DNA from: a virus
Taxonomy: Duplodnaviria; Caudoviricetes
Virus record (IMG/VR): IMGVR_UViG_2908764845_000006
Location: 1 to 64,000 of that record
Length of the DNA: 64,000 bases
Strand: one strand, 5' to 3'
The notes under the pieces are model-generated. The model worked only from the letters and a program-made list of their open reading frames with translations, ran no database searches and was not told the DNA's origin. The position numbers and the translations under genes are program-made. Below are positions 2,006 to 61,854 of the stretch, piece after piece. Position 1 is the first letter of the stretch. The number at the start of each line of letters is the position of its first letter.

Positions 2006-3415
2006 ATGCCCAAGCAGCAACGGATTCGCGACCCCCTGCACGATCTAATCCAGTTTGATGTTGAGAGATCGCAGCTAGAGGGCGTCCTCTGGCGCGTCCT
2101 GCAGACCCGTCCGTTCCAGCGCCTCCGGCGGATCAAGCAGCTCGGCTTTTCGGACTTCGTTTATCCGGGCGCTACTCATTCGAGGCTCCTCCACAGCGTG
2201 GGGGTTTTCCACACCGCGCGAAGGCTCATGAGAGTGATCGAAAAGTACCTTCCCGCCAAAGATGCTCGCGTGGATCAGGCGCTCGCCGCAGCACTTGTGC
2301 ACGATCTTGGACATGGACCATTCAGCCATGCGTTCGAGAAAATCGGCGAGCGGTTCGATCTCAAGATGGCAAATCACGAGGCCGTCAGCGACATGCTCAT
2401 TCGAAACGGAGAGGTTTCCGATGTGCTGCGTGACATGGGCAGCGGCTTTGCAAACGACGTGGCGGACATGGTTAGCGGCAGTGGCACGCCAACGATCTAC
2501 TCGGCAGTCGTGTCAAGCCAGTTCGATGCTGACCGCCTCGATTACATGAGACGCGATCGCCTCATGGTTGGCAGTCAGCACGCGGGGATCGACTTTGAGT
2601 GGTTGGTTGAGAACCTCGAGGTTGGCGAGGTGCAGCATGGCGTCGACGAAACCTCGCTCAAGCCCGTTCAAACCTTTGTCCTTGGGCGCAAGGCCATCTT
2701 CGCCGCCGAAGCCTACGTGCTTGGGCTTTTCCAACTCTATCCAACCGTTTATTTTCACAAGGCAACGCGGGGCGCGGAGAAGATCTACACCGAGCTGCTG
2801 ACCCGCACCATAACCCTGATTAAGGACGGCTCGATCGAAAAAACTGGTCTTCCGAAAACGCATCCGCTCGTCAAGTTTGCTCAAACGCCCGATAATATCG
2901 ATTGCGCGCTATCGCTCGACGATACGGTTATTTGGGGTGGGCTTTCCCTTATGGCTGACAGCAACGACAAATGGATCGGCAGTCTCGCTGAGCGCTTGCG
3001 AGATCGCAAACTCTACAAGTGCATCGATGTGCGGGCTAAGATTGCGCATGATAAGGACGATGGTGCGGCCTCGTCTTCAGAGGCCGACGAGGTGTGCGCT
3101 GGCGTCCGAGACGAGATTGTGAAGTGCTTGGATGAATGGTCCGCCAAATCCCCCGATGAACCTCCGCGGATTTTGATCGATGAGGTCGAACGGTCCCCTT
3201 ACAAAGAGTTGACCGAGGGCGCGAAAGGTCCGCTCAGCCAGATTAATATCCGTACTGAGGGTAACCACTTGGCCGATCTTTCAAAGCGGTCAAACGTTGT
3301 GGCGGCACTTAAGACCTACAAGGCCTTCCGTCTTTACCACGCCGATGGTGATGAAGAGGCTCGAAGGAAGGTGATGGAAATCGTAGACGCGGGGATATCA
3401 AAATGGCCGGCATAG
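2006..3415 (+). CDS. HD-domain phosphohydrolase (YwfO/SAMHD1-like dNTP triphosphohydrolase family)
   Basis: RDPLH, FQRLRRIKQLG, ATHSRLLHSVG, HDLGHGPFSH and DADRLDY motifs. Confidence 0.9.
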   Translation: MPKQQRIRDPLHDLIQFDVERSQLEGVLWRVLQTRPFQRLRRIKQLGFSDFVYPGATHSRLLHSVGVFHTARRLMRVIEKYLPAKDARVDQALAAALVHDLGHGPFSHAFEKIGERFDLKMANHEAVSDMLIRNGEVSDVLRDMGSGFANDVADMVSGSGTPTIYSAVVSSQFDADRLDYMRRDRLMVGSQHAGIDFEWLVENLEVGEVQHGVDETSLKPVQTFVLGRKAIFAAEAYVLGLFQLYPTVYFHKATRGAEKIYTELLTRTITLIKDGSIEKTGLPKTHPLVKFAQTPDNIDCALSLDDTVIWGGLSLMADSNDKWIGSLAERLRDRKLYKCIDVRAKIAHDKDDGAASSSEADEVCAGVRDEIVKCLDEWSAKSPDEPPRILIDEVERSPYKELTEGAKGPLSQINIRTEGNHLADLSKRSNVVAALKTYKAFRLYHADGDEEARRKVMEIVDAGISKWPA

Positions 3416-35187: not shown

Positions 35188-36789
35188 TTAGCCGTTGGCG
35201 ATGTTCGAGATCATCGCGAAGGCGGGCGGGAAGTAGCACTGCAGCACTTCGTCGGCGTAGACGCCCGACTCGTACTTGCGGGTCCGCAGCGGCCACTCGA
35301 TCTGGTAGTAGTCCTGACGGCAGCGGACCTGCAGGACGTTGGCGATACCCGAGACCGGGTACGGCAGCGACTTCGACGTCATCACGATCGTGCCCGCGGG
35401 CATGTTCGGATGGATGCGGATGTCGAGGGTCTTGGCGCCGCCCATGCTGAAACGGTTCAGATAGGTGCGGACCATGATGCCGCCGCCGAGGCTGTCGCGC
35501 TCGGAGTTGAACACGAACCGCTGGGCCGCGTTGGACGAGCCCTGCAGGATCTTCTTGGAGATGTTCAACGCCTCCTGCGAGTTCACCCAGATGGTGTCGG
35601 GCGACAGGCGGAAGTTGTCCCAGCGATCCTTCAGCGCGGCGTCGATCTCGACGATGCCGCCGGAGCCGTCCGAGGTCAGCGGCGTACCGACGCCGGCAGC
35701 GCCGGTGGCGAGACGGCCGACATAGGCATTCGACCCGGCCTTGAGCAGCTGGGTCATGATGCCGTCGAACACGAGGCTGTTGGTCGACTGGTCGCTCGAC
35801 GGCAGCGAGGCTGCGGTCTGCGTGCCGGTCGCGGCCGCCACGATGGCAACCGAGTTGATCGAGGTGATCGCACCGAGCACCTCGGAGCCAGCCGCGCCCC
35901 AGAACCAAGCGTAGCCGCAGGCGCCGTTGACCGCCGCAACGGTCGCCGTCAGCGAGCCGGTGGTGCCGCTCGCGACGGTGCCGGTGGCAGCCACCGACTT
36001 CTGCGCGGAGCCGCCGCCGAACGTGTCGGACGAGCCGTCAGCGTTGGCGCGGGTGATCGAGGCCTGGATACCGCCGGCGATCGAGCCGTTGACCATGGCG
36101 TCGAACGCGAGCGCGACGCAGATCACCGAGTAGGTCGCGGCAGCCAGAACGCCGCCGGTGATCGAGGCCGCGACCGTCGGGGTCGGGGTGATGCCGAGCT
36201 GCAGCGAGGTGTTGCCGCCGAGCAGCAGCGCCTCTTCGCCGATCATGGTGGCCTCGAGGCCGACCTTGGCCGCGATCGCCCGGATGTCGTCGAAGCCGCG
36301 GCCAGCGTACTCGGCCTCGAAGTCGACGTTGGTTTCCAGACCGATGCCGCGGTAAGCCGCCGCGTAGTCCTGCGTGGAGACCGCCTGCACGCCGCCGCGG
36401 TTACCGGCCGAGACGCCGATCCGCATGTTGGCGGTGTTCACGCTGGTCACGGCGCGCCAAGCGGCCTGAATGCCGCCCTTGCCGGTCACGCGCGGAATTT
36501 CGTTCCGCAGCGGAGTGAGAACCGGGTACACGAACTTCGCGCCCAGCTCGAGATCGTAGTAGGTCAGGCCCGTGGTGGGCGAGCCGGCCTGCTGGAACGT
36601 CGCCGACTTGGCGAACATCTCCGGGACGAAGTTGCGCGCCTCGTGCGACTTCGACATCGACGCGAGGAAGGACTGCACTTCGGCGGCGATCGCAGCGCGA
36701 TCGAGGTTGCCGTTGACGGTGTAGATCGGCGCCCACGACTTCTGCAGCTCGTGCGGCAGGAAGTCGGTATACTTGACGAGAGCGTTCAT
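35188..36789 (-). CDS. major capsid protein
   Basis: YDLE..AK...P..TPLRN.IPR start and Y.DEVL..Y.P end; follows the protease gene. Confidence 0.88.
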   Translation of the reverse strand: MNALVKYTDFLPHELQKSWAPIYTVNGNLDRAAIAAEVQSFLASMSKSHEARNFVPEMFAKSATFQQAGSPTTGLTYYDLELGAKFVYPVLTPLRNEIPRVTGKGGIQAAWRAVTSVNTANMRIGVSAGNRGGVQAVSTQDYAAAYRGIGLETNVDFEAEYAGRGFDDIRAIAAKVGLEATMIGEEALLLGGNTSLQLGITPTPTVAASITGGVLAAATYSVICVALAFDAMVNGSIAGGIQASITRANADGSSDTFGGGSAQKSVAATGTVASGTTGSLTATVAAVNGACGYAWFWGAAGSEVLGAITSINSVAIVAAATGTQTAASLPSSDQSTNSLVFDGIMTQLLKAGSNAYVGRLATGAAGVGTPLTSDGSGGIVEIDAALKDRWDNFRLSPDTIWVNSQEALNISKKILQGSSNAAQRFVFNSERDSLGGGIMVRTYLNRFSMGGAKTLDIRIHPNMPAGTIVMTSKSLPYPVSGIANVLQVRCRQDYYQIEWPLRTRKYESGVYADEVLQCYFPPAFAMISNIANG

Positions 36790-36978: not shown

Positions 36979-39942
36979 TCAGACCTGGCCGCGCGTCGGC
37001 ATCTGCCGACGCATGGACGCCTCGGTGGCTCGGGTGTTGAGCTCCTCGGACGTGATCTTCGCCAGATCACTGGTCACCATGTCGATGGCCTTCTCCGCGA
37101 CGCGGTAGGGACCGTTCGGCACGGCGGCCGGATAGAGCGAGACCTCGGCGACACGCTTGGTGAGGTCGCCGTTCTGGGTGGTCAGGGTCGCGATCTCCTC
37201 GCGGAGCGGACCCGTAGCCTTGGCGACCTCGTCGCTGATCTTCAGCGCGATGCCGGCCTCGATGTCCTTGAACAGCTGGGCCTGCGCGGCCGAAGCGGCA
37301 GCGACCTGCGCCTTGAGCAGATCGTTCGCCTCGATCGCCTTGCCGAGATCGTCGCCGGCGGCCTTCTCCGCAGCACCGCAGCAGCCCTTGTCGAGCTTGA
37401 CCATGGTGTCGTGGATTTCCTTGATCGCGGCGCGATCCTTGGCGCTGTGCCGCGCGCCGCGCTTGAGGAGATCGGCCAGCGGAGCTGCGCGCGTCAGCGC
37501 CTCGCTCTGCTCTTCGGCCTTGATGTGGGTCAGCACGGTGTCGAGCACGGCCGCGACGATGTCGCCGAGGTCGACCAGCGCGGCGCCGAAGCGGTCGCGC
37601 AGCTCCTTCGGCACCTCGATGCCCCACTCGCCCTCGGTCATGTTCTCGCACGCCTGAACGCACGCGAGCATGTTGGTGAGGTCGCCCATCATGTAGAGGC
37701 CGGCGCCCTTGGCGAGCTCGTCGCCCTCGATCGCCTCGCCCTTGAACACGAGGCCCTCGGGCAGCTTGTCGACGAGCGACAGCGCGCGGGCGGCCTTGAC
37801 CAGCTCGCGGGTCTCCACGTGGGAGGCGTTCAATGCGTCGAACAGCGTGATCGCCTTCTCGACGCCCTCGGCGGTGGTGAGGTCAGCCTTCTCGACGGTT
37901 GCGGTCTCGCCTTCGGGCTTCGCATCGCCATCAGCGCCCTTGGCGACCTCGGCGGGCTTCTCGCCGGTCTTGAGCGCATCGAGCACCGGAGCTGCCGCCT
38001 TGGCGACCGCGTCCTTGGCTTCGAGCTCGGCGAGCGCCTTCAGCAGGTCGCCCTTCTTGGCGAAGGTCTGGTTCGGCAGGCGCGGCGACGCCCAGACCTG
38101 GGCGACGTCGTCGGGAGTGGTCTTGGTCAAATCGACGCCCTCGGTTGCGGTGTTTTCGATCGTGCCACCGGCTTCGACGGTGGCGGTGGCGCCCTTGGCG
38201 ACCTCGGCAGCGGCCGCCTCAGCGGCGACCGGCTCAGCAGCGGCCTGCTCGACGGGAGCGGCCTTCTTGGCGGCGGCCTCGTCCTCGAGCGCCTTGCGGG
38301 CGTCGGCGATGTGCACCAGCCAGTCACCACCCTTCTCGGTCGCGATCTCGGTGGCGCGCTTGGCGACCATGTCGTTGGTGATGACGATCTCCTCGGTGGT
38401 CTCCGGCTTGGAGGCCTCGCCGCCAGCGAACTTGCGCATCTCCTCGGTGCCGTCCGCCTTGATCATGGAGAACGTGGCGGAGGGCCCGCACGGCAGGTCG
38501 ACCAGCGAAATCTCGGAGGGCGCGGCGGTATAGCGCTTTGCGTCGCCATCCTGCCAGCGCTTGAGGTAGCGGCCGCCGATGGAGAAGCCGGTGTAGACGC
38601 CCTCCTCGACCTTCTTCCACTCGTTGTCGTCGACGACCTTGGCGGCGATGTCGATCGCCTTGCGCGCATCGTCGAAGCCGATGTCGGTCAGCTTGCCGGC
38701 CGCGATCGCCGAGTGCATCGAACGCACGTTGCCGAGGCTCTTGCCGTCGGTCACCTTCGCGATGTCGCCCGACCACTTCTCGAAGTGCGGCTTCGAGGTC
38801 GCGTAGTCGAAGATCTCGTTGGCGCGATCGACTTCCTCGACCACTGCGGTGCCGTAAACGATGCGCTTGGCGGCATCGACCTTCGCGATTTGCACGAAGA
38901 GCGAAAGATTATCCATGTCCAGTTCTCCTGCGTCGCGTTTTTCGACGACGGTTGACATCCAGTTTTCTTTGATCTCGGCCCACTGCTCGGGTCCGAACTC
39001 AAGCACGCCGTCGAACGGCGCCATCTCGTCGATGACGATGTCCGCTCCCTGATAGGTGAGCGTGACGTGCGATTTGAAGTCAGGCCACCGCCAGACGGCG
39101 CCTGCGTCGTGGATCTCGCGATGACGCGAGGCGAGCTCGTCGGAGTGGAAGCGAAGCACGAGGGCTTCACCTTCCTTGCCGAGGCGCTCGAGGTGACGCT
39201 CACCGCCTTCGACCCGGAAGATCGGCACGGTGGAGCGCGGCACGCCGGACCATTCGACCGGCTCTTTCGAGTAGGCGATGGTGACGTGGAAATCGTCGAT
39301 GGGCAGCGTGACCGGGAAGCCGTTGGCTGCGGCCCAGCTCTTGAGTGCCTCGCCGTTGCGAAGGCTGCGCTTGATGTAGAGCGTGCGCTTGTCGCCCTTG
39401 GCGAAGCGCATCGGGCCGCCCTCGACGACGGAAATGACGAGCGGCAGCGAAGCGCGGACGCCGGGATGCAGCGGCTCGGGCGGCGCGCGCAGATATTCCC
39501 AGCGCGCCTCGGTGTGCTCGTCGTTCAGCTTGACGGCGAGCTTCTCCTCGACGCGCTGAACGAAGGTGGTGAAGTCGACCCGGCCGGTTGCGATCTGGCA
39601 GACCTGGCCGCGGATGCCTGCAGGGTCGAGCGTGATGCCGGCCTCTTCGAGCGTCTCGCGGATTGCTGCCTCTTCGGCCGTCTCGCCCGCGTCGATGCCC
39701 CCGCCCGGGAAATTCCACTCGCCGCCGTGGTCCCCACCCGGGGCCCGCTTCATGAACAGCGCGCGTCCATCCGGGGTCACGATGGCGATGCCGGCCGCCT
39801 GATGGCGGCCCGCGTCCGGATCGACGGCCGCCTTGGTGGCGTCCTTCTTCTTTTTCTTCTTCTGGCCCTCGAGGTCGTAGCCCTGAAGGCCGGACGTTGC
39901 CGACGCCGGCGCGGCGAAGGTCGATTTCTCCGCCGCGGTCAT
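36979..39942 (-). CDS. NUDIX hydrolase + Acb1-like 2H phosphoesterase + prohead protease + scaffold polyprotein
   Basis: Nudix box GGGIDAGETAEEAAIRETLEEAG; two HxT motifs (FHVTIAY, SHVTLTY); RSMH..GFSIGG..EISLVD.P protease; Ala/Glu/Lys-rich tail. Confidence 0.85.
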   Translation of the reverse strand: MTAAEKSTFAAPASATSGLQGYDLEGQKKKKKKDATKAAVDPDAGRHQAAGIAIVTPDGRALFMKRAPGGDHGGEWNFPGGGIDAGETAEEAAIRETLEEAGITLDPAGIRGQVCQIATGRVDFTTFVQRVEEKLAVKLNDEHTEARWEYLRAPPEPLHPGVRASLPLVISVVEGGPMRFAKGDKRTLYIKRSLRNGEALKSWAAANGFPVTLPIDDFHVTIAYSKEPVEWSGVPRSTVPIFRVEGGERHLERLGKEGEALVLRFHSDELASRHREIHDAGAVWRWPDFKSHVTLTYQGADIVIDEMAPFDGVLEFGPEQWAEIKENWMSTVVEKRDAGELDMDNLSLFVQIAKVDAAKRIVYGTAVVEEVDRANEIFDYATSKPHFEKWSGDIAKVTDGKSLGNVRSMHSAIAAGKLTDIGFDDARKAIDIAAKVVDDNEWKKVEEGVYTGFSIGGRYLKRWQDGDAKRYTAAPSEISLVDLPCGPSATFSMIKADGTEEMRKFAGGEASKPETTEEIVITNDMVAKRATEIATEKGGDWLVHIADARKALEDEAAAKKAAPVEQAAAEPVAAEAAAAEVAKGATATVEAGGTIENTATEGVDLTKTTPDDVAQVWASPRLPNQTFAKKGDLLKALAELEAKDAVAKAAAPVLDALKTGEKPAEVAKGADGDAKPEGETATVEKADLTTAEGVEKAITLFDALNASHVETRELVKAARALSLVDKLPEGLVFKGEAIEGDELAKGAGLYMMGDLTNMLACVQACENMTEGEWGIEVPKELRDRFGAALVDLGDIVAAVLDTVLTHIKAEEQSEALTRAAPLADLLKRGARHSAKDRAAIKEIHDTMVKLDKGCCGAAEKAAGDDLGKAIEANDLLKAQVAAASAAQAQLFKDIEAGIALKISDEVAKATGPLREEIATLTTQNGDLTKRVAEVSLYPAAVPNGPYRVAEKAIDMVTSDLAKITSEELNTRATEASMRRQMPTRGQV

Positions 39943-39964
39943 GGCGTCTCCGGGAGCTGGGGGA

Positions 39965-41173
39965 TCAGGTGAGCGTGTTGGCCCACGCCGTGATGGTCGG
40001 CGCGATGTTTGCGTTGCCAAGCGCGTTCGGGTGGATGCCGTCGGCGGTGAGAACGCCGCCCGAGACCTTCCACTTGCCGGGGTTGGCCGGATCTTCGACC
40101 ACCGCGGCGACGTCGATGACGCCGTCGATGGTCACGCCGACCTGCGTCAGCAGCCATGCGTTGAACAGGCCGCGGATGCCGGTGCTTTCGTAGTTGGCAA
40201 CGACGGTCTGGCCGCCCGTCGTGGTGAAGCCGTCCGACGAGGTGCAGCGCGGCAGCAGCGTGCACTGGTAGACCTTGAGGCCCCGCGCCTTCGCCGACTT
40301 CCAGTTCGCGAGGGCCAACGTCTGCATGCTGGCGAGCGAGACGCCGCCGGCAGGATCGTTGTTGCCCATGTCGGTGACGTAGTGGGTGGCGTACTCCATC
40401 AGGCTGTCGCGCCGCCAGCCGTGCCCGATTGCACCCTCGCCCTGCAGGCTGTCGCCCGCGCGCGCCAAGTTCATATACGGGATGGCGCCGCCCGAGGCGC
40501 CGACCAACCCGCGCTCGAGGAAGCCGTTTGCGCCGACGTTGTTGTTCACGTCAGCCACGCCGACCGCGATGCTGTCACCGCGGATCACGACGGCGGGCGT
40601 CGGGGTCAGCGGATAGCCGAGCACTGCGAGCGGACCATAGCCCTTTGAGACCAGCACGCCGCCGTTCGCCACCATAGCGCCGGTGAAGCCGAGAACCTGG
40701 CTGCTGCCGGAGGTGTTCTCGACGAAGGTGTCGGCGGTGGTCAGCGTCAGCACGCCGTACTGCACGAACTGACCGGCGGAGGCGACCGTGACGCCGGTAC
40801 GGATGGCAAAATCGGTGCTCGGCGCCAGATCGGCGCCGATCTTGTCGGAGATGAAGTAGTGGGCGCCGGCGGCGAGCAGCCGGTTGACCTGCGCGCCGAA
40901 GAACGCCCGGCGGGTGAACACGCCGGTCAGCGACTCGAGCGCCGCCTCCACCGTGATGTCGTTCGGCGCGTCGGCGTCCGAGCTGGTCGCGTTGGCGAGG
41001 AAGTTGCCGTACAGGAGGCGGATGTCGCGCACATAGACCGGCGCCGAGCGCATCTTGATGCGGCTCTCGAACCGGGTCGCGGTGCCGCCGCCCTGCGTGT
41101 AGTCGCCCATGACGCGGCCGCGCGTGGCGACGACCTGCAGCTTGCGCGGGGAGATGCGTTGGAAGTCGGTCAT
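39965..41173 (-). CDS. SGNH/GDSL hydrolase (esterase)
   Basis: GDSI, GNND and DGIHP blocks. Confidence 0.85.
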   Translation of the reverse strand: MTDFQRISPRKLQVVATRGRVMGDYTQGGGTATRFESRIKMRSAPVYVRDIRLLYGNFLANATSSDADAPNDITVEAALESLTGVFTRRAFFGAQVNRLLAAGAHYFISDKIGADLAPSTDFAIRTGVTVASAGQFVQYGVLTLTTADTFVENTSGSSQVLGFTGAMVANGGVLVSKGYGPLAVLGYPLTPTPAVVIRGDSIAVGVADVNNNVGANGFLERGLVGASGGAIPYMNLARAGDSLQGEGAIGHGWRRDSLMEYATHYVTDMGNNDPAGGVSLASMQTLALANWKSAKARGLKVYQCTLLPRCTSSDGFTTTGGQTVVANYESTGIRGLFNAWLLTQVGVTIDGVIDVAAVVEDPANPGKWKVSGGVLTADGIHPNALGNANIAPTITAWANTLT

Positions 41174-42083: not shown

Positions 42084-42279
42084 TGAACTTGTCCCCCAAG
42101 GGTTCGAGCTCGCCGACCGAGACATACTTGTCCGGTCGCGCGAGCTGAGCGGCCGCCGCGTTGCGGTGAGCCATCTCGTTGATCCGGCGAAGCTCGGCGA
42201 GCGTCAGCATCTGCTGGCCGCTCTCCTTCGCCTCGTTCCGGCGAGCGCCGCGGTATGATCCGGCTGGTCGGGCCATCAC
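42076..42279 (-). CDS. small hypothetical protein
   Basis: Coupled to the portal stop. Confidence 0.45.
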   Translation of the reverse strand: MMARPAGSYRGARRNEAKESGQQMLTLAELRRINEMAHRNAAAAQLARPDKYVSVGELEPLGDKFNG

Positions 42280-43958
42280 TTGTCCTTCTTGGGCGGCGCC
42301 TTGGCGCCGACCTTGGTTGAGGGGGGCGATGTGGAGGGGGTCTTGGTGGAGCCCGGCTCGGGCGCCGTGGGCTGCGGGACGGCTTGCGCCATCGCCTTCG
42401 CCTCGGTGACCTTCTGGTCGAGCTGACCGTTGTCGATGTTGACGTAGCCGGTTGCGGTCTTGACCATCAGCTGGCTTGCCGCAGGGTTCGGATCAGGCTC
42501 CTCGCCGATCTTCTCCCGGACCTGATTGATGGTCAGGATGCCGTCCTCGGCGTAGCCGCGCAGGATGGTCGACTGCTTCTCCGGGTCGATCTCCTGCTCT
42601 TCCGCCCACGCGAACTCGAGGTCGTCGTCGGAGAACTCGCGCATCAGCACGTCGTTGAGGGTCTCGGTGACCCACTGCTTCATGGGCTCGATGCCCTCCT
42701 CCTCGGCCTGCTTCTCGTGCTGCTCGGCGATCGAGCGGTTCGAGAGCGAGACGAAGGCGGCCGGCGGATAGGAGAACGCGAAGCAGACGATGCGGACCAG
42801 CCACTCGTCGAACTCGTTCTTGAGCGGCGGCTCCTTGAGCGGCGTGTAGGCGTTGCCGGAGCCGGTCGGGATGAACTTCATCCGGCGACGGTTGGCGAGG
42901 TTGCCCGAGAACAGATCGTCCCAATACTGCTGGAAGCGTGCAGTCTGGTCCGGCGTCCACTCGGCCGGCAGCGAATACACCGCGTCCGGCTGGTTGCCTT
43001 CGCGGAAGTATTCGAGCTGCGCCAGCGAGCGGCGCAGCGCGATCGAGACGGTCATCACGACCTGCTCGACCGGCGAATAGCCATAGACCCGGTTAGGACG
43101 CAGATTGAGCGGCCGATAGATCAGGTCCGCCGTGGTGTAGTTCACTGCCGGGAGACCTTTCAGCACCTGCTGATAGGCCGGAGGCAGCATCGCGAACTTC
43201 GGCGGCTTCATGCCGATCGGCGTCTGATGCGCGATCATGGAGCCGGGCACCAGCCGGAAGCCGAAGGTCCGGTGGTTCTCCAGCGTGATGGTGTCGCCGT
43301 TCCACGTGAAGTCCTGCCCGGTGAACGGGATGGGCTCCGGGGTGCGGCCCCAATCGTCGATCACCCGCTTGATGGTGCCGCCGTCGACGTAGCGCAGGCC
43401 GATCAGCCCGCCGCCACGGTTGCGCTCGCAGAAGATCGACGGGGCGTCGATCACGAGCAGATCCTCGAGGATCGCGCGCAGCCAGGATCGGAAGGTCATC
43501 TCCCGGTCGGGCCGCTTGAAGAAGCGCGTGATCTCCTTGATGCGGTTCTGCTGAGCCGCAGGCAGCTCGGAGATCGGCGGCCGCTTCTTCTTGCTGCTGT
43601 CCTCGTGCTTGACGCGGATGGTCCACGGCAGGCGGCACATCTGATCCTTGCGCCGCTCGATGACGAGCCGCATCGGGTCGTAGCTGTCGGCGAGGTTGCG
43701 CAGCGCCGGGAACGAGATTTCCTCGTAGGTGCGCGGCGTGGTGGCGAGGTTGTAGCCCGGGATGAAATCCCAGACGCGGCCTGCGACCTCGGGCGGGGCA
43801 ATCGGCTGGATCGGGTTGAGAGGTCCGAACCAGTCGGCGCCCTGCGCGGTGCCGTAGCCCGCGCCCGGCGTGACCGGGCGCCCTTGCGACGACACGTTGA
43901 CGTCGTAGGGAGAGAGCGACCGCATCGAGCGGCCTTCTCCGCGAGGGGTGGACACCAT
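42276..43958 (-). CDS. portal protein
   Basis: YGYSPVEQ, YF.EGN.P and GILTINQVR..G..P motifs. Confidence 0.9.
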   Translation of the reverse strand: MVSTPRGEGRSMRSLSPYDVNVSSQGRPVTPGAGYGTAQGADWFGPLNPIQPIAPPEVAGRVWDFIPGYNLATTPRTYEEISFPALRNLADSYDPMRLVIERRKDQMCRLPWTIRVKHEDSSKKKRPPISELPAAQQNRIKEITRFFKRPDREMTFRSWLRAILEDLLVIDAPSIFCERNRGGGLIGLRYVDGGTIKRVIDDWGRTPEPIPFTGQDFTWNGDTITLENHRTFGFRLVPGSMIAHQTPIGMKPPKFAMLPPAYQQVLKGLPAVNYTTADLIYRPLNLRPNRVYGYSPVEQVVMTVSIALRRSLAQLEYFREGNQPDAVYSLPAEWTPDQTARFQQYWDDLFSGNLANRRRMKFIPTGSGNAYTPLKEPPLKNEFDEWLVRIVCFAFSYPPAAFVSLSNRSIAEQHEKQAEEEGIEPMKQWVTETLNDVLMREFSDDDLEFAWAEEQEIDPEKQSTILRGYAEDGILTINQVREKIGEEPDPNPAASQLMVKTATGYVNIDNGQLDQKVTEAKAMAQAVPQPTAPEPGSTKTPSTSPPSTKVGAKAPPKKDK

Positions 43959-43974: not shown

Positions 43975-45684
43975 TTACGTTGTGGGCCCCGCTTGAGGCG
44001 TTGGCGCGGGCAGCGGGACGCGCTCCCAGCCCCGTTGCATGAAGGCTGAGGCGTCGTCCTTGCTGACGGCGATGATGCGGTTGGCCGGCGGGTATGCTGC
44101 CGTGCCGTCCATCAGGTAGACGGTCGATACGTCGTCCGGCACGCGGATCAGCACCTTGTCGCGCGGAGGCGTGGCCGGTGTGATCTCGAAGCCGAACTGG
44201 GGACCTTCCGGAGGCGGGGCGCTTGCGGCCCCGCCCTGCTGCTGCGCGCCCTCGGCGAGCCGCTTGTAATACTCGATCCAGCTGTTGGCGCCGGAAGCGA
44301 GAGCCAGGTCGTTCACCGCCCAGATCCATGCGTCGGCACGGTCAGGCGACTTCGGTCCGCCGTAACCGAGCGTGGTGAAGGCGGTGAGCTGGTCCTCCAG
44401 CTCGTTGAAGCGTCCGACGTGGCGCACGCCGTTGCGGGTATACAGCGTGGAGATCGGCTCGGCGCGGACGTGCTTGCCCTTGCTTGCATGCACCACGCGC
44501 ACCGGGACGTTACCGTCCAGCGAGCGGATGACGTAGGCGACCATGTCGCCGCCGTAGTTGGTCTCGGCGATGATGTGGTCGGCGCCGTAGGCGTGGTAGG
44601 CGGCGATTGCCGCCTTGCCCCAGTTCTCCGGACCGCCGACGATCGACAGGTCGGCGCGCAGATAGACACGGTTGTCCTTGCCGAGCGAGGCGACAATGAT
44701 GCCGATCTCGTCGTTGAGCGGCTTCTGCTCGACGTCGGTCTTGTCGCCGGGCTCGGATGCGCCGGACGGGTCGATCGAGACCACGGTCTGCACATATTCC
44801 GGCTCGTCGCCGACGACGACGCGGCAGCTCTCGATCATCTCGGTGGTCCAGAGCGCGCCGACGTTCTCGTCGATGTAGGCGCCTTCCCAGAACCGCTTGC
44901 GATAGTTGCCGGTCGAGTTTTCGAGTTCCTTGATGTAGCCCGCGTCAAGGTTCGCGATGTTGTCAGCGGGATTGATGAACATCCGCTGGTAGTTCTCGGG
45001 GTCGTTGATCGCGACCTTGGTCTCTGGGTCCTTGAGCTCGCCGAACAGGACGTTGGTCCAGTGCGACTTGCCGACCGGGTTGATGTCGTAGAACATCCGC
45101 TGCCGGCAGCCGGCGACGACCTGGGCGAGACGCGAGCGGACCAGCTTGGCGGTGTACCAGCTGATCTGCGAGCACTCGTTGAGGAAGATCGTGGCGTATT
45201 CGGCGCCGAGGATCTTGTCGGCGCGCGAGGCGTCGTCGAGACCGCCGATCCAGATTTCCGATCCGTTCGGAAACCGCACCACGTTGTGGGGGTGGCGCGA
45301 ATGCCTGTATGTCGTCCCCGGGAAGAAGAGCTTCATCACCTTCGGCAGGGTGTCGAGACCCACCGAGGCGTCGGCATGGACCGCGCGGTTGCGCAGGATC
45401 ACATGGCGGGAGCCCGGGAAGCGCAACGCGCGCAGCACGATGGTGCGGACGAGCGTCGTGGTCTTGCCGGAGCGGGCGCCGCCGACCAGACAGGTGTGGC
45501 GCTGATCGCCACCGAGCAGGATGGTGGCCTTCTCCTGCGCCGGCGTTGCGCCCTTCTCGCCCCATGACGAGAGCGCGGGGCCGCCATTGTGCCCGACCTT
45601 GGTCGGGCCCTCGGCGCCGACGATGACGAACTGAGGGCCCCTGCTGGGGGCTTTTTTCTGCCGCGCGGCCTTAGAGCTTGGCAT
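43975..45684 (-). CDS. terL: terminase large subunit
   Basis: GGARSGKT Walker A, IFLNE Walker B, SIDP and SPDRADA nuclease motifs. Confidence 0.92.
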   Translation of the reverse strand: MPSSKAARQKKAPSRGPQFVIVGAEGPTKVGHNGGPALSSWGEKGATPAQEKATILLGGDQRHTCLVGGARSGKTTTLVRTIVLRALRFPGSRHVILRNRAVHADASVGLDTLPKVMKLFFPGTTYRHSRHPHNVVRFPNGSEIWIGGLDDASRADKILGAEYATIFLNECSQISWYTAKLVRSRLAQVVAGCRQRMFYDINPVGKSHWTNVLFGELKDPETKVAINDPENYQRMFINPADNIANLDAGYIKELENSTGNYRKRFWEGAYIDENVGALWTTEMIESCRVVVGDEPEYVQTVVSIDPSGASEPGDKTDVEQKPLNDEIGIIVASLGKDNRVYLRADLSIVGGPENWGKAAIAAYHAYGADHIIAETNYGGDMVAYVIRSLDGNVPVRVVHASKGKHVRAEPISTLYTRNGVRHVGRFNELEDQLTAFTTLGYGGPKSPDRADAWIWAVNDLALASGANSWIEYYKRLAEGAQQQGGAASAPPPEGPQFGFEITPATPPRDKVLIRVPDDVSTVYLMDGTAAYPPANRIIAVSKDDASAFMQRGWERVPLPAPTPQAGPTT

Positions 45685-60252: not shown

Positions 60253-61854
60253 TCAGCCGCTGTCGTTGTCAGCTGGCAGGTTTTTTTGAGCGGTGCAATT
60301 GAACGGCAACAGATCTTCGATATCGGCGTCTGGCGCGCGTTGGGGCAATTCGGTGAGCGCGTGACGTAGCCATGCATAGGGATCGACGCCGCATGCCCGG
60401 CATGTCAGCACCAAACTGTAGATCACGGCGCTTGCCTTGGCGCCGGCAACGGTGTCGCTGAACAGCCAACTTTTTCGTCCGGTGCAAAACGGCCTGATGT
60501 CGCGCTCCAGAACATTGTTATCGATCGGGGCGAGACCGTCACTGGTGTAACGGGTCAGATAATCCCATTGGTTGCGTGCATAGGCGATCGCCTTGCCGGT
60601 CAAGCTTTCGGGTAGCACCTTCGGCGCCTGGTCGTCGAGCCAGGTCCGGAAGGCGGCCAATACCGGCAGGCTATGCTGCTGGCGCAGCCGCAAGGTGTAT
60701 GCGGCGCGCGTTTCGCCGTCGGGCGGCGTCTGGCGCGCCACCCTCTCGACCTCGTACAACGCCTCGAAGAACTTGAGCGCCTGCAATGGCGGACCGCCAG
60801 GCTTTGTCCTGGCCTTGAGCGCATCGGTAAATTTCCTGCGCGCATGCGCCATACAGCCGAGATGGGTCGCGCCTGTCAGCGTGCGCCAGGCGTCATAGCC
60901 GTCGCTCATCAACAAGCCGCGATAGCCGGCCAGGAAGGCCTGAGGATGTTGCTGGCCGCGACCGGGCTGGTAATCGAACAGCACGACCGGCTGCGCGCAG
61001 TCCTGGCCGCTGCGATAGGCCCACATGAAGGATTTGGCCTGCGCATCACGGCCGTCCTCTTTAAGAACCTGGACCCAGGTTTCGTCGCCGTGGACCAGGG
61101 GCTGCGACATGAGCTTTTGCTGTAGCGCGTCATAGACCCGATGCAGATGCAACTCGCTCGCCCGGATCACCCAGTTGCCCAGCGTCCCGCGGCTGATGCT
61201 GACGTCGGCGCGCCCCAGCGCGTCCGCCACACGGTACAGCGGCGTGCCGTCGACGTATTTGTTGGCGAGCACCAGCGCCAGCGTCGATGGCGTGGCGACG
61301 CTACCCGGCAGCGGCTGCGCCGGCATCGGCGCGGTCACAATCGGGGTGTTCAGCGCGGTGCGCTCGCAGTGACGGCAGGCATATTTGAACCGCACATGTT
61401 GCAGCACCGACGCCTTGACCTCGACGTGCAACTGCTCGGTGACGGTCTCGCCCATCCGATGCATCCGATTATGGCAGCACGGACAGTCCTTTTGATCCTC
61501 ACCCAGATCGTGTTCGACGCGTTGGCGCGGCAGATCGTCAGGCAGCGGCTTGCGGCCGCGTGCCTTCGGCGCCGGCTTTGGAGCCTCCGGCAATCCCGTG
61601 TCCGGCACGGCGACCGCCTCGACATCGTCGTCGTCCCGGCTTTCAGCGGCGGCCTGCTCGGCTTCGTTGAAGATGCGCTCCTTGAGCTTTTCGCTCTTCG
61701 GCGCATACCGGTGCAGGCGCTCCAGGCGCAACTGCTCCTCTAGATGCAGCACGCGTTGTGCGAGTTTCTCGTTTTCGGCCTTCAGCGCCGCGATCTCGGC
61801 CGCGTGCGCCGCGATCAAGGCTTCCAGTTCGTGCGTCGTGGGCTTGCGACTCAT
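60253..61854 (-). CDS. tnpC: IS66 transposase TnpC
   Basis: HGDET, SDGY, C.AHARRKF and IDNN..ER motifs. Confidence 0.95.
   Translation of the reverse strand: MSRKPTTHELEALIAAHAAEIAALKAENEKLAQRVLHLEEQLRLERLHRYAPKSEKLKERIFNEAEQAAAESRDDDDVEAVAVPDTGLPEAPKPAPKARGRKPLPDDLPRQRVEHDLGEDQKDCPCCHNRMHRMGETVTEQLHVEVKASVLQHVRFKYACRHCERTALNTPIVTAPMPAQPLPGSVATPSTLALVLANKYVDGTPLYRVADALGRADVSISRGTLGNWVIRASELHLHRVYDALQQKLMSQPLVHGDETWVQVLKEDGRDAQAKSFMWAYRSGQDCAQPVVLFDYQPGRGQQHPQAFLAGYRGLLMSDGYDAWRTLTGATHLGCMAHARRKFTDALKARTKPGGPPLQALKFFEALYEVERVARQTPPDGETRAAYTLRLRQQHSLPVLAAFRTWLDDQAPKVLPESLTGKAIAYARNQWDYLTRYTSDGLAPIDNNVLERDIRPFCTGRKSWLFSDTVAGAKASAVIYSLVLTCRACGVDPYAWLRHALTELPQRAPDADIEDLLPFNCTAQKNLPADNDSG

Follow-up and report, generated by a model that had tools for sequence, protein, structure and literature searches.

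A peptide common to the capsid arm and other head-module proteins of tailed phages, probably a processing or address signal

Introduction

In phage T4, the capsid targeting sequence (CTS) of the internal proteins IPII and IPIII brings them into the prohead, and the protease gp21 trims the N-terminal peptides of IPI–III and Alt (PMC9958956). In the staphylococcal phage 80alpha, the capsid and scaffold proteins share an N-terminal motif that is cut by Prp, and the same motif is reported on non-homologous proteins of other phages (PMC5744158). Here, we describe a peptide, referred to as the tag, at residues 5–25 of P0001, a 987-residue polyprotein encoded in a 64,000-nucleotide stretch of tailed-phage DNA (the window; positions 1 to 64,000 of IMG/VR record IMGVR_UViG_2908764845_000006). 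The tag is a conserved, disordered and portable module, paralogous to the segment of the capsid protein that precedes its folded HK97 core. Copies are located at the termini and domain junctions of head-module proteins, namely protease-scaffold fusions, separate scaffolds, and fused or stand-alone cargo, and the tag is probably a processing or address signal.

The T4 CTS, with which the tag may reasonably be compared, is a short N-terminal peptide on head-interior proteins, is portable and is trimmed by the prohead protease. T4 further packages and trims an ADP-ribosyltransferase, Alt, and one of the tagged proteins described below (locus L269) has an Alt-like domain beside its tag. The CTS has ∼10 residues, whereas the tag has 20 and is paralogous to the arm of the capsid itself; in many proteins the tag is internal, it occurs on the scaffold and the protease themselves, and it changes in step with the capsid. 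We know of no report of the CTS as a copy of a gp23 segment. As in 80alpha, one conserved motif occurs in the capsid and scaffold of the same phage (here in the window pair, Thermoanaerobacterium phage THSA-485A, Alicyclobacillus phage MMB025, locus L099 and the 11 lineages compared below). In 80alpha, cutting is done by Prp, a protease of the host, at a motif that imitates ribosomal protein L27, and 13–14 residues are removed from the extreme N-terminus; here, the S78-like protease is phage-encoded, the capsid copy lies 35–60 residues into the protein, and further copies occur at internal junctions and on enzyme cargo.

More distant parallels concern processing and loading. The propeptide sites of giant phages are three-residue motifs ending in Glu, unlike the 20-residue capsid-arm copy described here; encapsulin loading works through short disordered terminal peptides, and MuF-fused toxins are enzymes built into phage heads. 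In the giant phages phiKZ and SPN3US, one prohead protease cuts many head-interior or ejected proteins in addition to the capsid protein (PMC7411985, PMC10052503). Encapsulins have a dedicated mechanism for loading enzyme cargo into their HK97-fold shells (PMC8346489). The likeness is limited: here, a phage packages DNA, and its tag, which is paralogous to the arm of its shell protein, lies for the most part at the N-terminus or inside the protein. The anti-defence proteins DarA and Hdf of phage P1 reside in the phage head (PMC12810830). As with these and the MuF toxins, the enzymes of the present system would be counter-defence enzymes built into the head and presumably delivered with the DNA; unlike them, they are fused to a protease-scaffold and carry a capsid-arm tag. 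The open-access papers searched yielded no description of such a tag. By analogy, the system would work like the T4 CTS and the shared motif of 80alpha, differing from them in its 20-residue copy of a shell arm, in the sharing of this copy by capsid, scaffold, protease and cargo, in its occurrence in phages of hosts from two bacterial phyla, and in its tracking of the capsid.

Results

The gene for P0001 occupies 36979–39942 on the minus strand, which also carries the other head-module features given below. The protein starts MTAAEKSTFAAPASATSGLQGYDLEGQKKKKKKD; the tag itself (EKSTFAAPASATSGLQGYDLE) is encoded at 39868–39930 and is followed, two residues beyond its E-G, by a tract of six lysines (residues 28–33, 39844–39861). 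The initial annotation, made from the DNA sequence, had placed the tag and the lysine tract in this way, as the translation of the open reading frame (ORF) confirmed. Its start of translation at 39942 was likewise borne out: the ATG at 39940–39942 has a Shine-Dalgarno-like GGAGA (39947–39951) four bases ahead of it, the stop codon of the upstream gene lies at 39965–39967, and the homologues P0007 and P0008 begin at the same point as P0001.

The capsid copy of the motif (AKSATFQQAGSPTTGLTYYDLE) comprises residues 60–81 of the major capsid protein P0002 and is encoded at 36547–36612. The annotation had located it correctly except that its start, 36548, was one base off. According to BLASTP, residues 4–25 of P0001 and residues 60–81 of P0002 are identical at 11/22 positions without gaps, with an E of 3e-4 for this single comparison; the 12/22 identities first counted by eye are obtained when one gap is allowed. 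When the 22-mer was shuffled with its composition preserved, its BLOSUM62 score of 51 was attained at any position of the capsid protein by 1/20,000 shuffles, and 11 identities by 4/20,000. In a six-frame translation of the window, YDLE occurs twice, exactly at the tag and the capsid copy. The window is part of a contig in a 10.4 Mb genome, in which the back-translated pattern GL..YDLE also occurs twice, at the same two sites, and a reversed control pattern occurs once. The resemblance between the polyprotein tag and the capsid stretch is thus real. At the DNA level, the two stretches are identical at 38/66 positions (58%), and the same codon is used for only 6 of the 11 identical residues, indicating that the likeness is kept at the protein level and does not stem from a fresh duplication. 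The 58% identity rules out recent duplication or gene conversion within the window.

P0002 (533 residues; 35188–36789; phrog_13692, E 2.8e-138) has an HK97 fold with a large insertion. Its AlphaFold2 model had a mean predicted local distance difference test score (pLDDT) of 87.1, and a Foldseek search with this model returned phage capsids with E values down to 6.5e-12, including HK97 (1ohg_A, E 5.9e-7). A sequence search of P0002 against solved structures gave no match. Residues 1–80 are not confidently placed in the model and the ordered fold begins at about residue 85, such that the motif lies directly ahead of the confidently folded core. The motif is disordered in the monomer model, with pLDDT <50 at residues 58–69 and 73–77. 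Upstream of it, a helix is predicted at residues 29–51 (36637–36705; block means of 45–74), and relatives of the capsid have a helix-like leader of variable length at the corresponding place.

The capsid family comprises 1,115 representative clusters at E ≤ 0.001. The motif is among the best-kept parts of the family, with G74 and L80 conserved in at least 90% of 102 sequences, and continues directly into a conserved ..AK.LYPVLTPLRN stretch. A strict motif pattern fits 84/128 full-length capsid representatives and matched inside capsid ORFs 61 times in 80 genome loci plus three further loci (L001–L003). By eye, the family alignment shows a Lys 10–13 residues ahead of GL. The residue after Y-D-L in the 102 capsids is E in 59, Q in 23, R in 7, D in 4, A in 4, S in 2, and K, T or W in one each. 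For deeper capsid lineages, alignment A3 contained no conserved stretch; a query with the THSA-485A capsid matched only the phage itself and a 97% relative, and a query with P0238 matched nothing. A scan with a core pattern yielded 40 usable loci, with 2 copies.

Behind its tag and lysine tract, P0001 has four parts. The first is a NUDIX hydrolase domain (residues 46–160, 39463–39807), which matches PF00293 with an E of 1.3e-18 and 67.8 bits against a cut-off of 21.1, is modelled confidently by AlphaFold2 and has Nudix hydrolases as its top Foldseek matches. The second is an Acb1 domain (residues 186–330, 38953–39387; PF23474, E 2.7e-33, 115.1 bits against a cut-off of 27). Acb1 belongs to a 2H phosphodiesterase family that counters the cyclic-oligonucleotide-based antiphage signalling system (CBASS). 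Two H-x-T/S motifs define the 2H phosphoesterases, and the translation contains both, as FHVTIAYS and SHVTLTY. The third part is a prohead (head maturation) serine protease domain (residues ∼342–505, 38428–38919), which matches the PHROG head maturation protease families phrog_9427 (E 2.5e-9) and phrog_34096. In Pfam it scores below the cut-off (S78_2, PF14550; 18.2 bits against 24), and the protease of a homologue in locus L163 reaches both Peptidase_S78 (PF04586) and PF14550; we treat the P0001 domain as a putative divergent S78 member. Residues H410 and S454, which we take from the protease family to be catalytic, are invariant in 36 homologue sequences. A sequence search of the domain against solved structures gave no match. 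The remainder (36979–38427, stop codon included) is scaffold-like and mostly helical, with long helices in the AlphaFold2 model, and is homologous to the C-terminal part of the protease-scaffold of Brevundimonas phage Polewnik and to relatives.

In the AlphaFold2 model of the whole polyprotein, the tag is disordered (pLDDT <50 at residues 1–14 and 16–41) and does not dock in cis; the model was built on a shallow alignment (36 rows, in which the order of domains is shuffled), and its Acb1 part is of poor quality. A Foldseek search with this model returned Nudix matches only. Disorder of the motif in both monomer models is as expected for a linear motif read in trans; the models, which speak to docking in cis, say nothing on binding in trans.

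To establish how far the tag extends beyond P0001, we compared 126 polyprotein-type proteins, made up of P0001, 119 relatives and 6 proteins from a search for short tagged proteins, in which 6 of 21 candidates matched. The consensus of the tag is K-STF..P.SATSGLQ.YDLE-G, usually followed by a Lys/Arg-rich tract (2–11 K/R in the next 20 residues). A strict pattern fits 38/126 proteins, and all 38 end in E-G; the motif is thus conserved in homologous fusions, as the initial annotation had proposed. Variants differing at one residue occur in P0014, P0035 and P0047. A plain N-terminus is present in 59 proteins, and 23 were not classed by the patterns used. The similarity to the capsid ends sharply, with K on one side and E or D on the other, and G is also the next residue in the copies of loci L099, L163, L179, L183, L241 and L269 and of THSA-485A and MMB025.

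Of the 38 tags, 23 begin at most 7 residues from the N-terminus, two others at residues 15 and 37, and the other 13 inside the protein. Twelve proteins have the tag 23–43 residues ahead of the protease, each time with 7–10 K/R in the next 20 residues, and 5 of these 12 have no cargo and consist of tag, basic tract and protease-scaffold alone. In others, the tag is separated from the protease by cargo (NUDIX and Acb1, either of which may come first, and a Cys-rich module), and in further homologues it stands ahead of the tag (Acb1, or a domain of ∼190 residues). ChaB, where present, follows the protease (P0018). The tag may also lie between protease and scaffold, as in P0280, L183 and L163, and cargo fusions without a tag exist (P0024 and P0045).

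Three recurrent segments of these proteins were noted. An N-terminal domain of ∼190 residues (MRDDERF...) precedes the tag or protease in P0020, P0028, P0032, P0037, P0045, P0047, P0071 and P0278; it had no Pfam match in the two proteins scanned (P0278 and P0020) and may be a further cargo enzyme. Directly behind the tag there is often a small module rich in Cys (C..C ... C ... HC, or CPGC...CKVC), by eye a putative zinc ribbon, as in P0008–P0010, P0014, P0017–P0021, P0023, P0278 and the L269 ORF. Finally, many homologues have a conserved block, K/R..YS..ER......G.A..DGS.PI....DL.NA....GR.KN....KRHI..RAK.LG, between protease and scaffold, which is also present in MMB025 and THSA-485A and whose place is taken in some proteins by DUF6582.

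Most relatives do not carry the tag. It was found in 2/80 genome loci and in 2/37 IMG/VR loci with a complete protease start, and a best-match scan detected tags in 15/160 loci, with scores of 42–61 against a background of 10–29. Hidden weaker copies were looked for in plain protease-scaffolds and none emerged from this background. In the closest named phages, Brevundimonas phages Polewnik and Strzyga, the capsid motif is present, and the Polewnik protease-scaffold has neither tag nor cargo. The protease is encoded in 49/50 capsid-selected loci with at least 3.5 kb of upstream sequence.

Tags also occur on proteins that are not joined to the protease. Separate scaffolds without a protease domain start with the tag in L099/L084 and L241. 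In L179, a stand-alone ORF of 251 residues (L179:1133–1885), two genes upstream of the protease-scaffold, has an N-terminal tag and basic tract. It had no Pfam or PHROG match; a DGHHR near its C-terminus presumably recalls ParB/sulfiredoxin-type motifs. P0278 consists of an unassigned N-domain, the tag, a putative zinc ribbon and a coiled coil, and the small proteins P0275 and P0276 are also tagged. A further example is an ORF of 1716 residues on an IMG/VR contig (L269:1936–7083), located between a portal/MuF-like gene and a separate protease-scaffold. It contains, in order, two ADP-ribosyltransferase matches (Pfam ADPrib_exo_Tox and an Alt-like PHROG), the tag, a putative zinc ribbon and a NUDIX domain; ∼780 further residues have no family assignment. 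A metagenome scan with the tag pattern returned 79 stretches, 50 of which lie in no ORF of the size examined; the 29 in-ORF matches comprise 4 true non-capsid tags, 1 capsid and others that look like chance.

The tag and the resident capsid motif change in concert, which is, on sequence comparison, the strongest comparative result. The capsids of THSA-485A and MMB025, which are phages of Firmicutes hosts, are only 26–27% identical to P0002. Each of these phages has its own variant of the motif, both in the capsid and in the middle of the protease-scaffold, where the copy is followed by G and then a Lys-rich stretch. Variants common to both copies also mark other lineages: G-I-N in L183, F-V-S-P in L099, K.GIST in L269 and T-D-G-L in L089/L091. 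Across 11 lineages, which were selected for carrying a copy and whose motifs were taken from locus DNA, the mean best score of a capsid motif was 49.4 in its own locus against 33.2 in other loci, and the observed pairing sum was reached by 1/200,000 permuted pairings. The lineage's own capsid motif scored best in 8/11 loci. In a narrower comparison, confined to 9 close relatives, the excess was small (13.4 against 12.7 identities of 21). Had the two copies arisen by one ancient duplication and then drifted independently, the pattern of concerted change would not be expected; it calls for co-evolution with a shared partner, for gene conversion, or for tags being copied time and again from the phage's own capsid gene.

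Discussion

We tentatively favour the reading that the tag is recognised and cut by the prohead protease and that its carrier is handled like the capsid arm. This preference is based on the junction positions of the tag, the invariant E/D-G at its edge, and the 80alpha and T4 precedents. The head-maturation machinery would treat any carrier of the tag as it treats the capsid arm, and the likeliest partner of the tag would be the substrate groove of the prohead serine protease. The cut would fall at one edge of the motif, either after YDLE and before G, or after K and before STF. A K|STF cut would keep the tag as a new N-terminus, in the capsid too; a YDLE|G cut would remove it. If the capsid is cut after YDLE, the capsid stretch is removed and is hence not the mature N-arm of which the initial annotation had taken the tag to be a copy. 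Cutting at the tag would separate the parts of a polyprotein. For carriers that are not attached to the scaffold, this binding could in addition serve to draw them into the prohead, as the T4 CTS does. For P0001, NUDIX and Acb1 would enter the prohead as part of the protease-scaffold and the tag would then be trimmed, leaving a K-rich N-terminus on the cargo. The two enzymes may afterwards be released and exit together with the DNA, or may function late in the infected cell.

The earlier comparison with the T4 CTS is reasonable in that the tag is conserved, portable, present on unfused proteins and, in P0001, preceded by a supported start at 39942. The proposal of a cargo tag was supported only in part. 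The tag is not cargo-specific, since it is present inside the plain protease-scaffolds of distant phages; moreover, the five cargo-free proteins described above carry it. In P0001, a covalent link to the protease-scaffold already exists for NUDIX and Acb1, which hence need no address, and P0024 and P0045 are cargo fusions that lack the tag. The most sensible view of the P0001 tag is that it was inherited as the first part of a module composed of tag, basic tract and cargo.

Several points weigh against cleavage as the role of the tag. A cleavage site at the extreme N-terminus frees nothing, so that cutting alone fails for 23 tags; because it likewise cannot explain the stand-alone tagged proteins, some binding role is needed under any model. 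The cleavage motifs of T4 gp21 and the phiKZ protease have three residues, and the conserved motif here, with 16–20, is longer. The would-be P1 residue varies in capsids, being E in only 59/102, and the motif runs unbroken into the conserved capsid core, as would be fitting for a structural arm. Tags are absent from most relatives (only 2/80 genome loci and 2/37 IMG/VR loci have one) and, since these relatives and the plain protease-scaffolds lack a copy, the protease does not need it for self-processing. Finally, the concerted change was scored in lineages chosen for carrying a copy, and the window pair is one of the 3/11 in which the tag is not closest to its own capsid.

The main rival, which we consider possible but somewhat doubtful, is that the tag mimics the capsid N-arm and binds the arm-receiving site on the capsid core or lattice; together with the basic tract, it would anchor scaffold, protease or cargo to the inner surface, perhaps to be displaced later as in donor-strand exchange. 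In favour of docking, 16–20 residues with conserved aromatic and aliphatic anchors (F, GL and Y.L) would be suitable for an interface of extended shape, nearly all members of the family have the capsid copy, which continues into the conserved core, the 'P1' residue varies in capsids, and the N-terminal tags on stand-alone proteins and separate scaffolds would have the binding function that they need. If tag and capsid arm fit the same groove of the capsid, they should change in concert, the Lys/Arg tract after the tag would fit, and encapsulins offer a precedent for dedicated cargo loading into HK97-fold shells (PMC8346489). On the other hand, the AlphaFold2 monomer leaves the capsid's own motif undocked (pLDDT <50), with the limit that lattice contacts cannot appear in a monomer, and the arm-acceptor sites of a complete lattice would be filled by capsid arms. 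The invariant G after E/D and the sharp edges of the motif are not explained by docking, and most relatives have no tag.

A broader proposal, which we regard as unlikely, makes the tag a general means of entry into a large family of HK97-fold heads. A copy of the capsid arm would occupy either the arm-acceptor site or the protease groove, and its carriers would be built in and later released by strand exchange or cleavage. New tags would be derived from the phage's own capsid gene, thus accounting for variants that match within a lineage, and would load anti-defence enzymes (Acb1, NUDIX and the Alt-like ADP-ribosyltransferase) for delivery with the DNA; the Acb1 fusion would put the antidote on the CBASS trigger.

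It is improbable that the partner is the scaffold, with a scaffold domain gripping the capsid arm motif and the copies on scaffolds and cargo binding the scaffold domains of other molecules, such that the core self-assembles and targeting is to the core and not the shell, as in T4. The T4 CTS is indeed reported to bring proteins to the scaffolding core (PMC9958956), and the N-terminal sequence of the 80alpha scaffold is required for assembly even when uncleaved (PMC5744158). The tag at the N-terminus of separate scaffolds (L099 and L241) and at the protease/scaffold junction would also agree with such binding. Nevertheless, a copy on the scaffold itself would be a competitor of the capsid for binding, the tag is missing from most scaffolds in this family, and the AlphaFold2 model of the full polyprotein shows no cis contact.

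It is equally improbable that the tag is a pseudo-substrate propeptide that fills the active site of the protease, silences the enzyme until assembly and is then cut off. This would fit the 12 proteins in which the tag lies 23–43 residues before the protease, 5 of them without cargo, and the N-terminal region of T4 gp21 is reported to block its catalytic centre until removed by self-cleavage (PMC9958956). However, it would leave unexplained the tags that follow the protease and those of separate scaffolds and stand-alone proteins, 320 cargo residues separate tag and protease in P0001, and no cis docking is seen with AlphaFold2. A resemblance without meaning, whether due to chance, to composition or to the decay of a once duplicated capsid 5' end, can for practical purposes be dismissed: although the window pair is identical at only 11/22 positions and Ala/Ser/Thr/Gly-rich stretches are common in proteins from G+C-rich genomes, it is countered by the shuffle test (1/20,000), the uniqueness of the pattern to two sites in 10.4 Mb, the strong conservation in 38 homologues, the lineage-specific variants in phages of Firmicutes hosts and IMG/VR lineages, the permutation test (1/200,000), and a DNA identity of 58%, which implies that the match is held at the protein level.

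If the tag is an address or processing signal, it would provide a sequence handle for listing head-packaged effectors in this capsid family and a candidate means of directing selected proteins into capsids of this kind. It would also represent a targeting or cleavage signal born from copying the shell protein and then evolving in step with it. The cargo seen so far (Acb1, NUDIX, the Alt-like ADP-ribosyltransferase, ChaB and zinc-ribbon modules) is of the kind that a phage would want in active form by the time its DNA enters the cell. According to a 2026 preprint, CBASS is activated when prohead proteases cut the CD-NTase (PMC12991175). In P0001, the Acb1 (38953–39387) and prohead protease (38428–38919) domains are in one polypeptide, a fusion that links a CBASS trigger and its countermeasure. 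The consulted excerpts of PMC12991175 and of the literature on Acb1 with prohead protease contain no mention of such a fusion.

Genomic context

The window contains a prophage head module on the minus strand, with genes for the terminase large subunit (43975–45684; phrog_979, E 1.3e-58), the portal protein (42276–43958; phrog_2662, E 1.6e-76), an SGNH/GDSL esterase-like protein (39965–41173; phrog_8480, E 1.7e-53, with Pfam Lipase_GDSL_2 below cut-off), the NUDIX-Acb1-protease-scaffold polyprotein and the capsid. Because the terminase and portal genes adjoin the capsid gene, the shell is a phage head and not an encapsulin. The position of the esterase-like gene between portal and polyprotein is unusual for such an enzyme. 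A second ORF for 533 residues, at 60253–61854 on the minus strand, was considered and rejected: it encodes an IS66-family transposase and has the length of the capsid by coincidence.

Two further observations were made. At 2006–3415 on the plus strand, the window encodes a 469-residue protein with an HD domain and an HD-associated region according to Pfam. In tblastn searches, residues ∼163–356 of P0001, which include Acb1, matched beneath annotated portal genes of several phages, among them Pseudomonas phage phiPSA1, Rhizobium phage RHph_TM26 and Synechococcus phages; Acb1 may thus be built into head proteins in other ways too.

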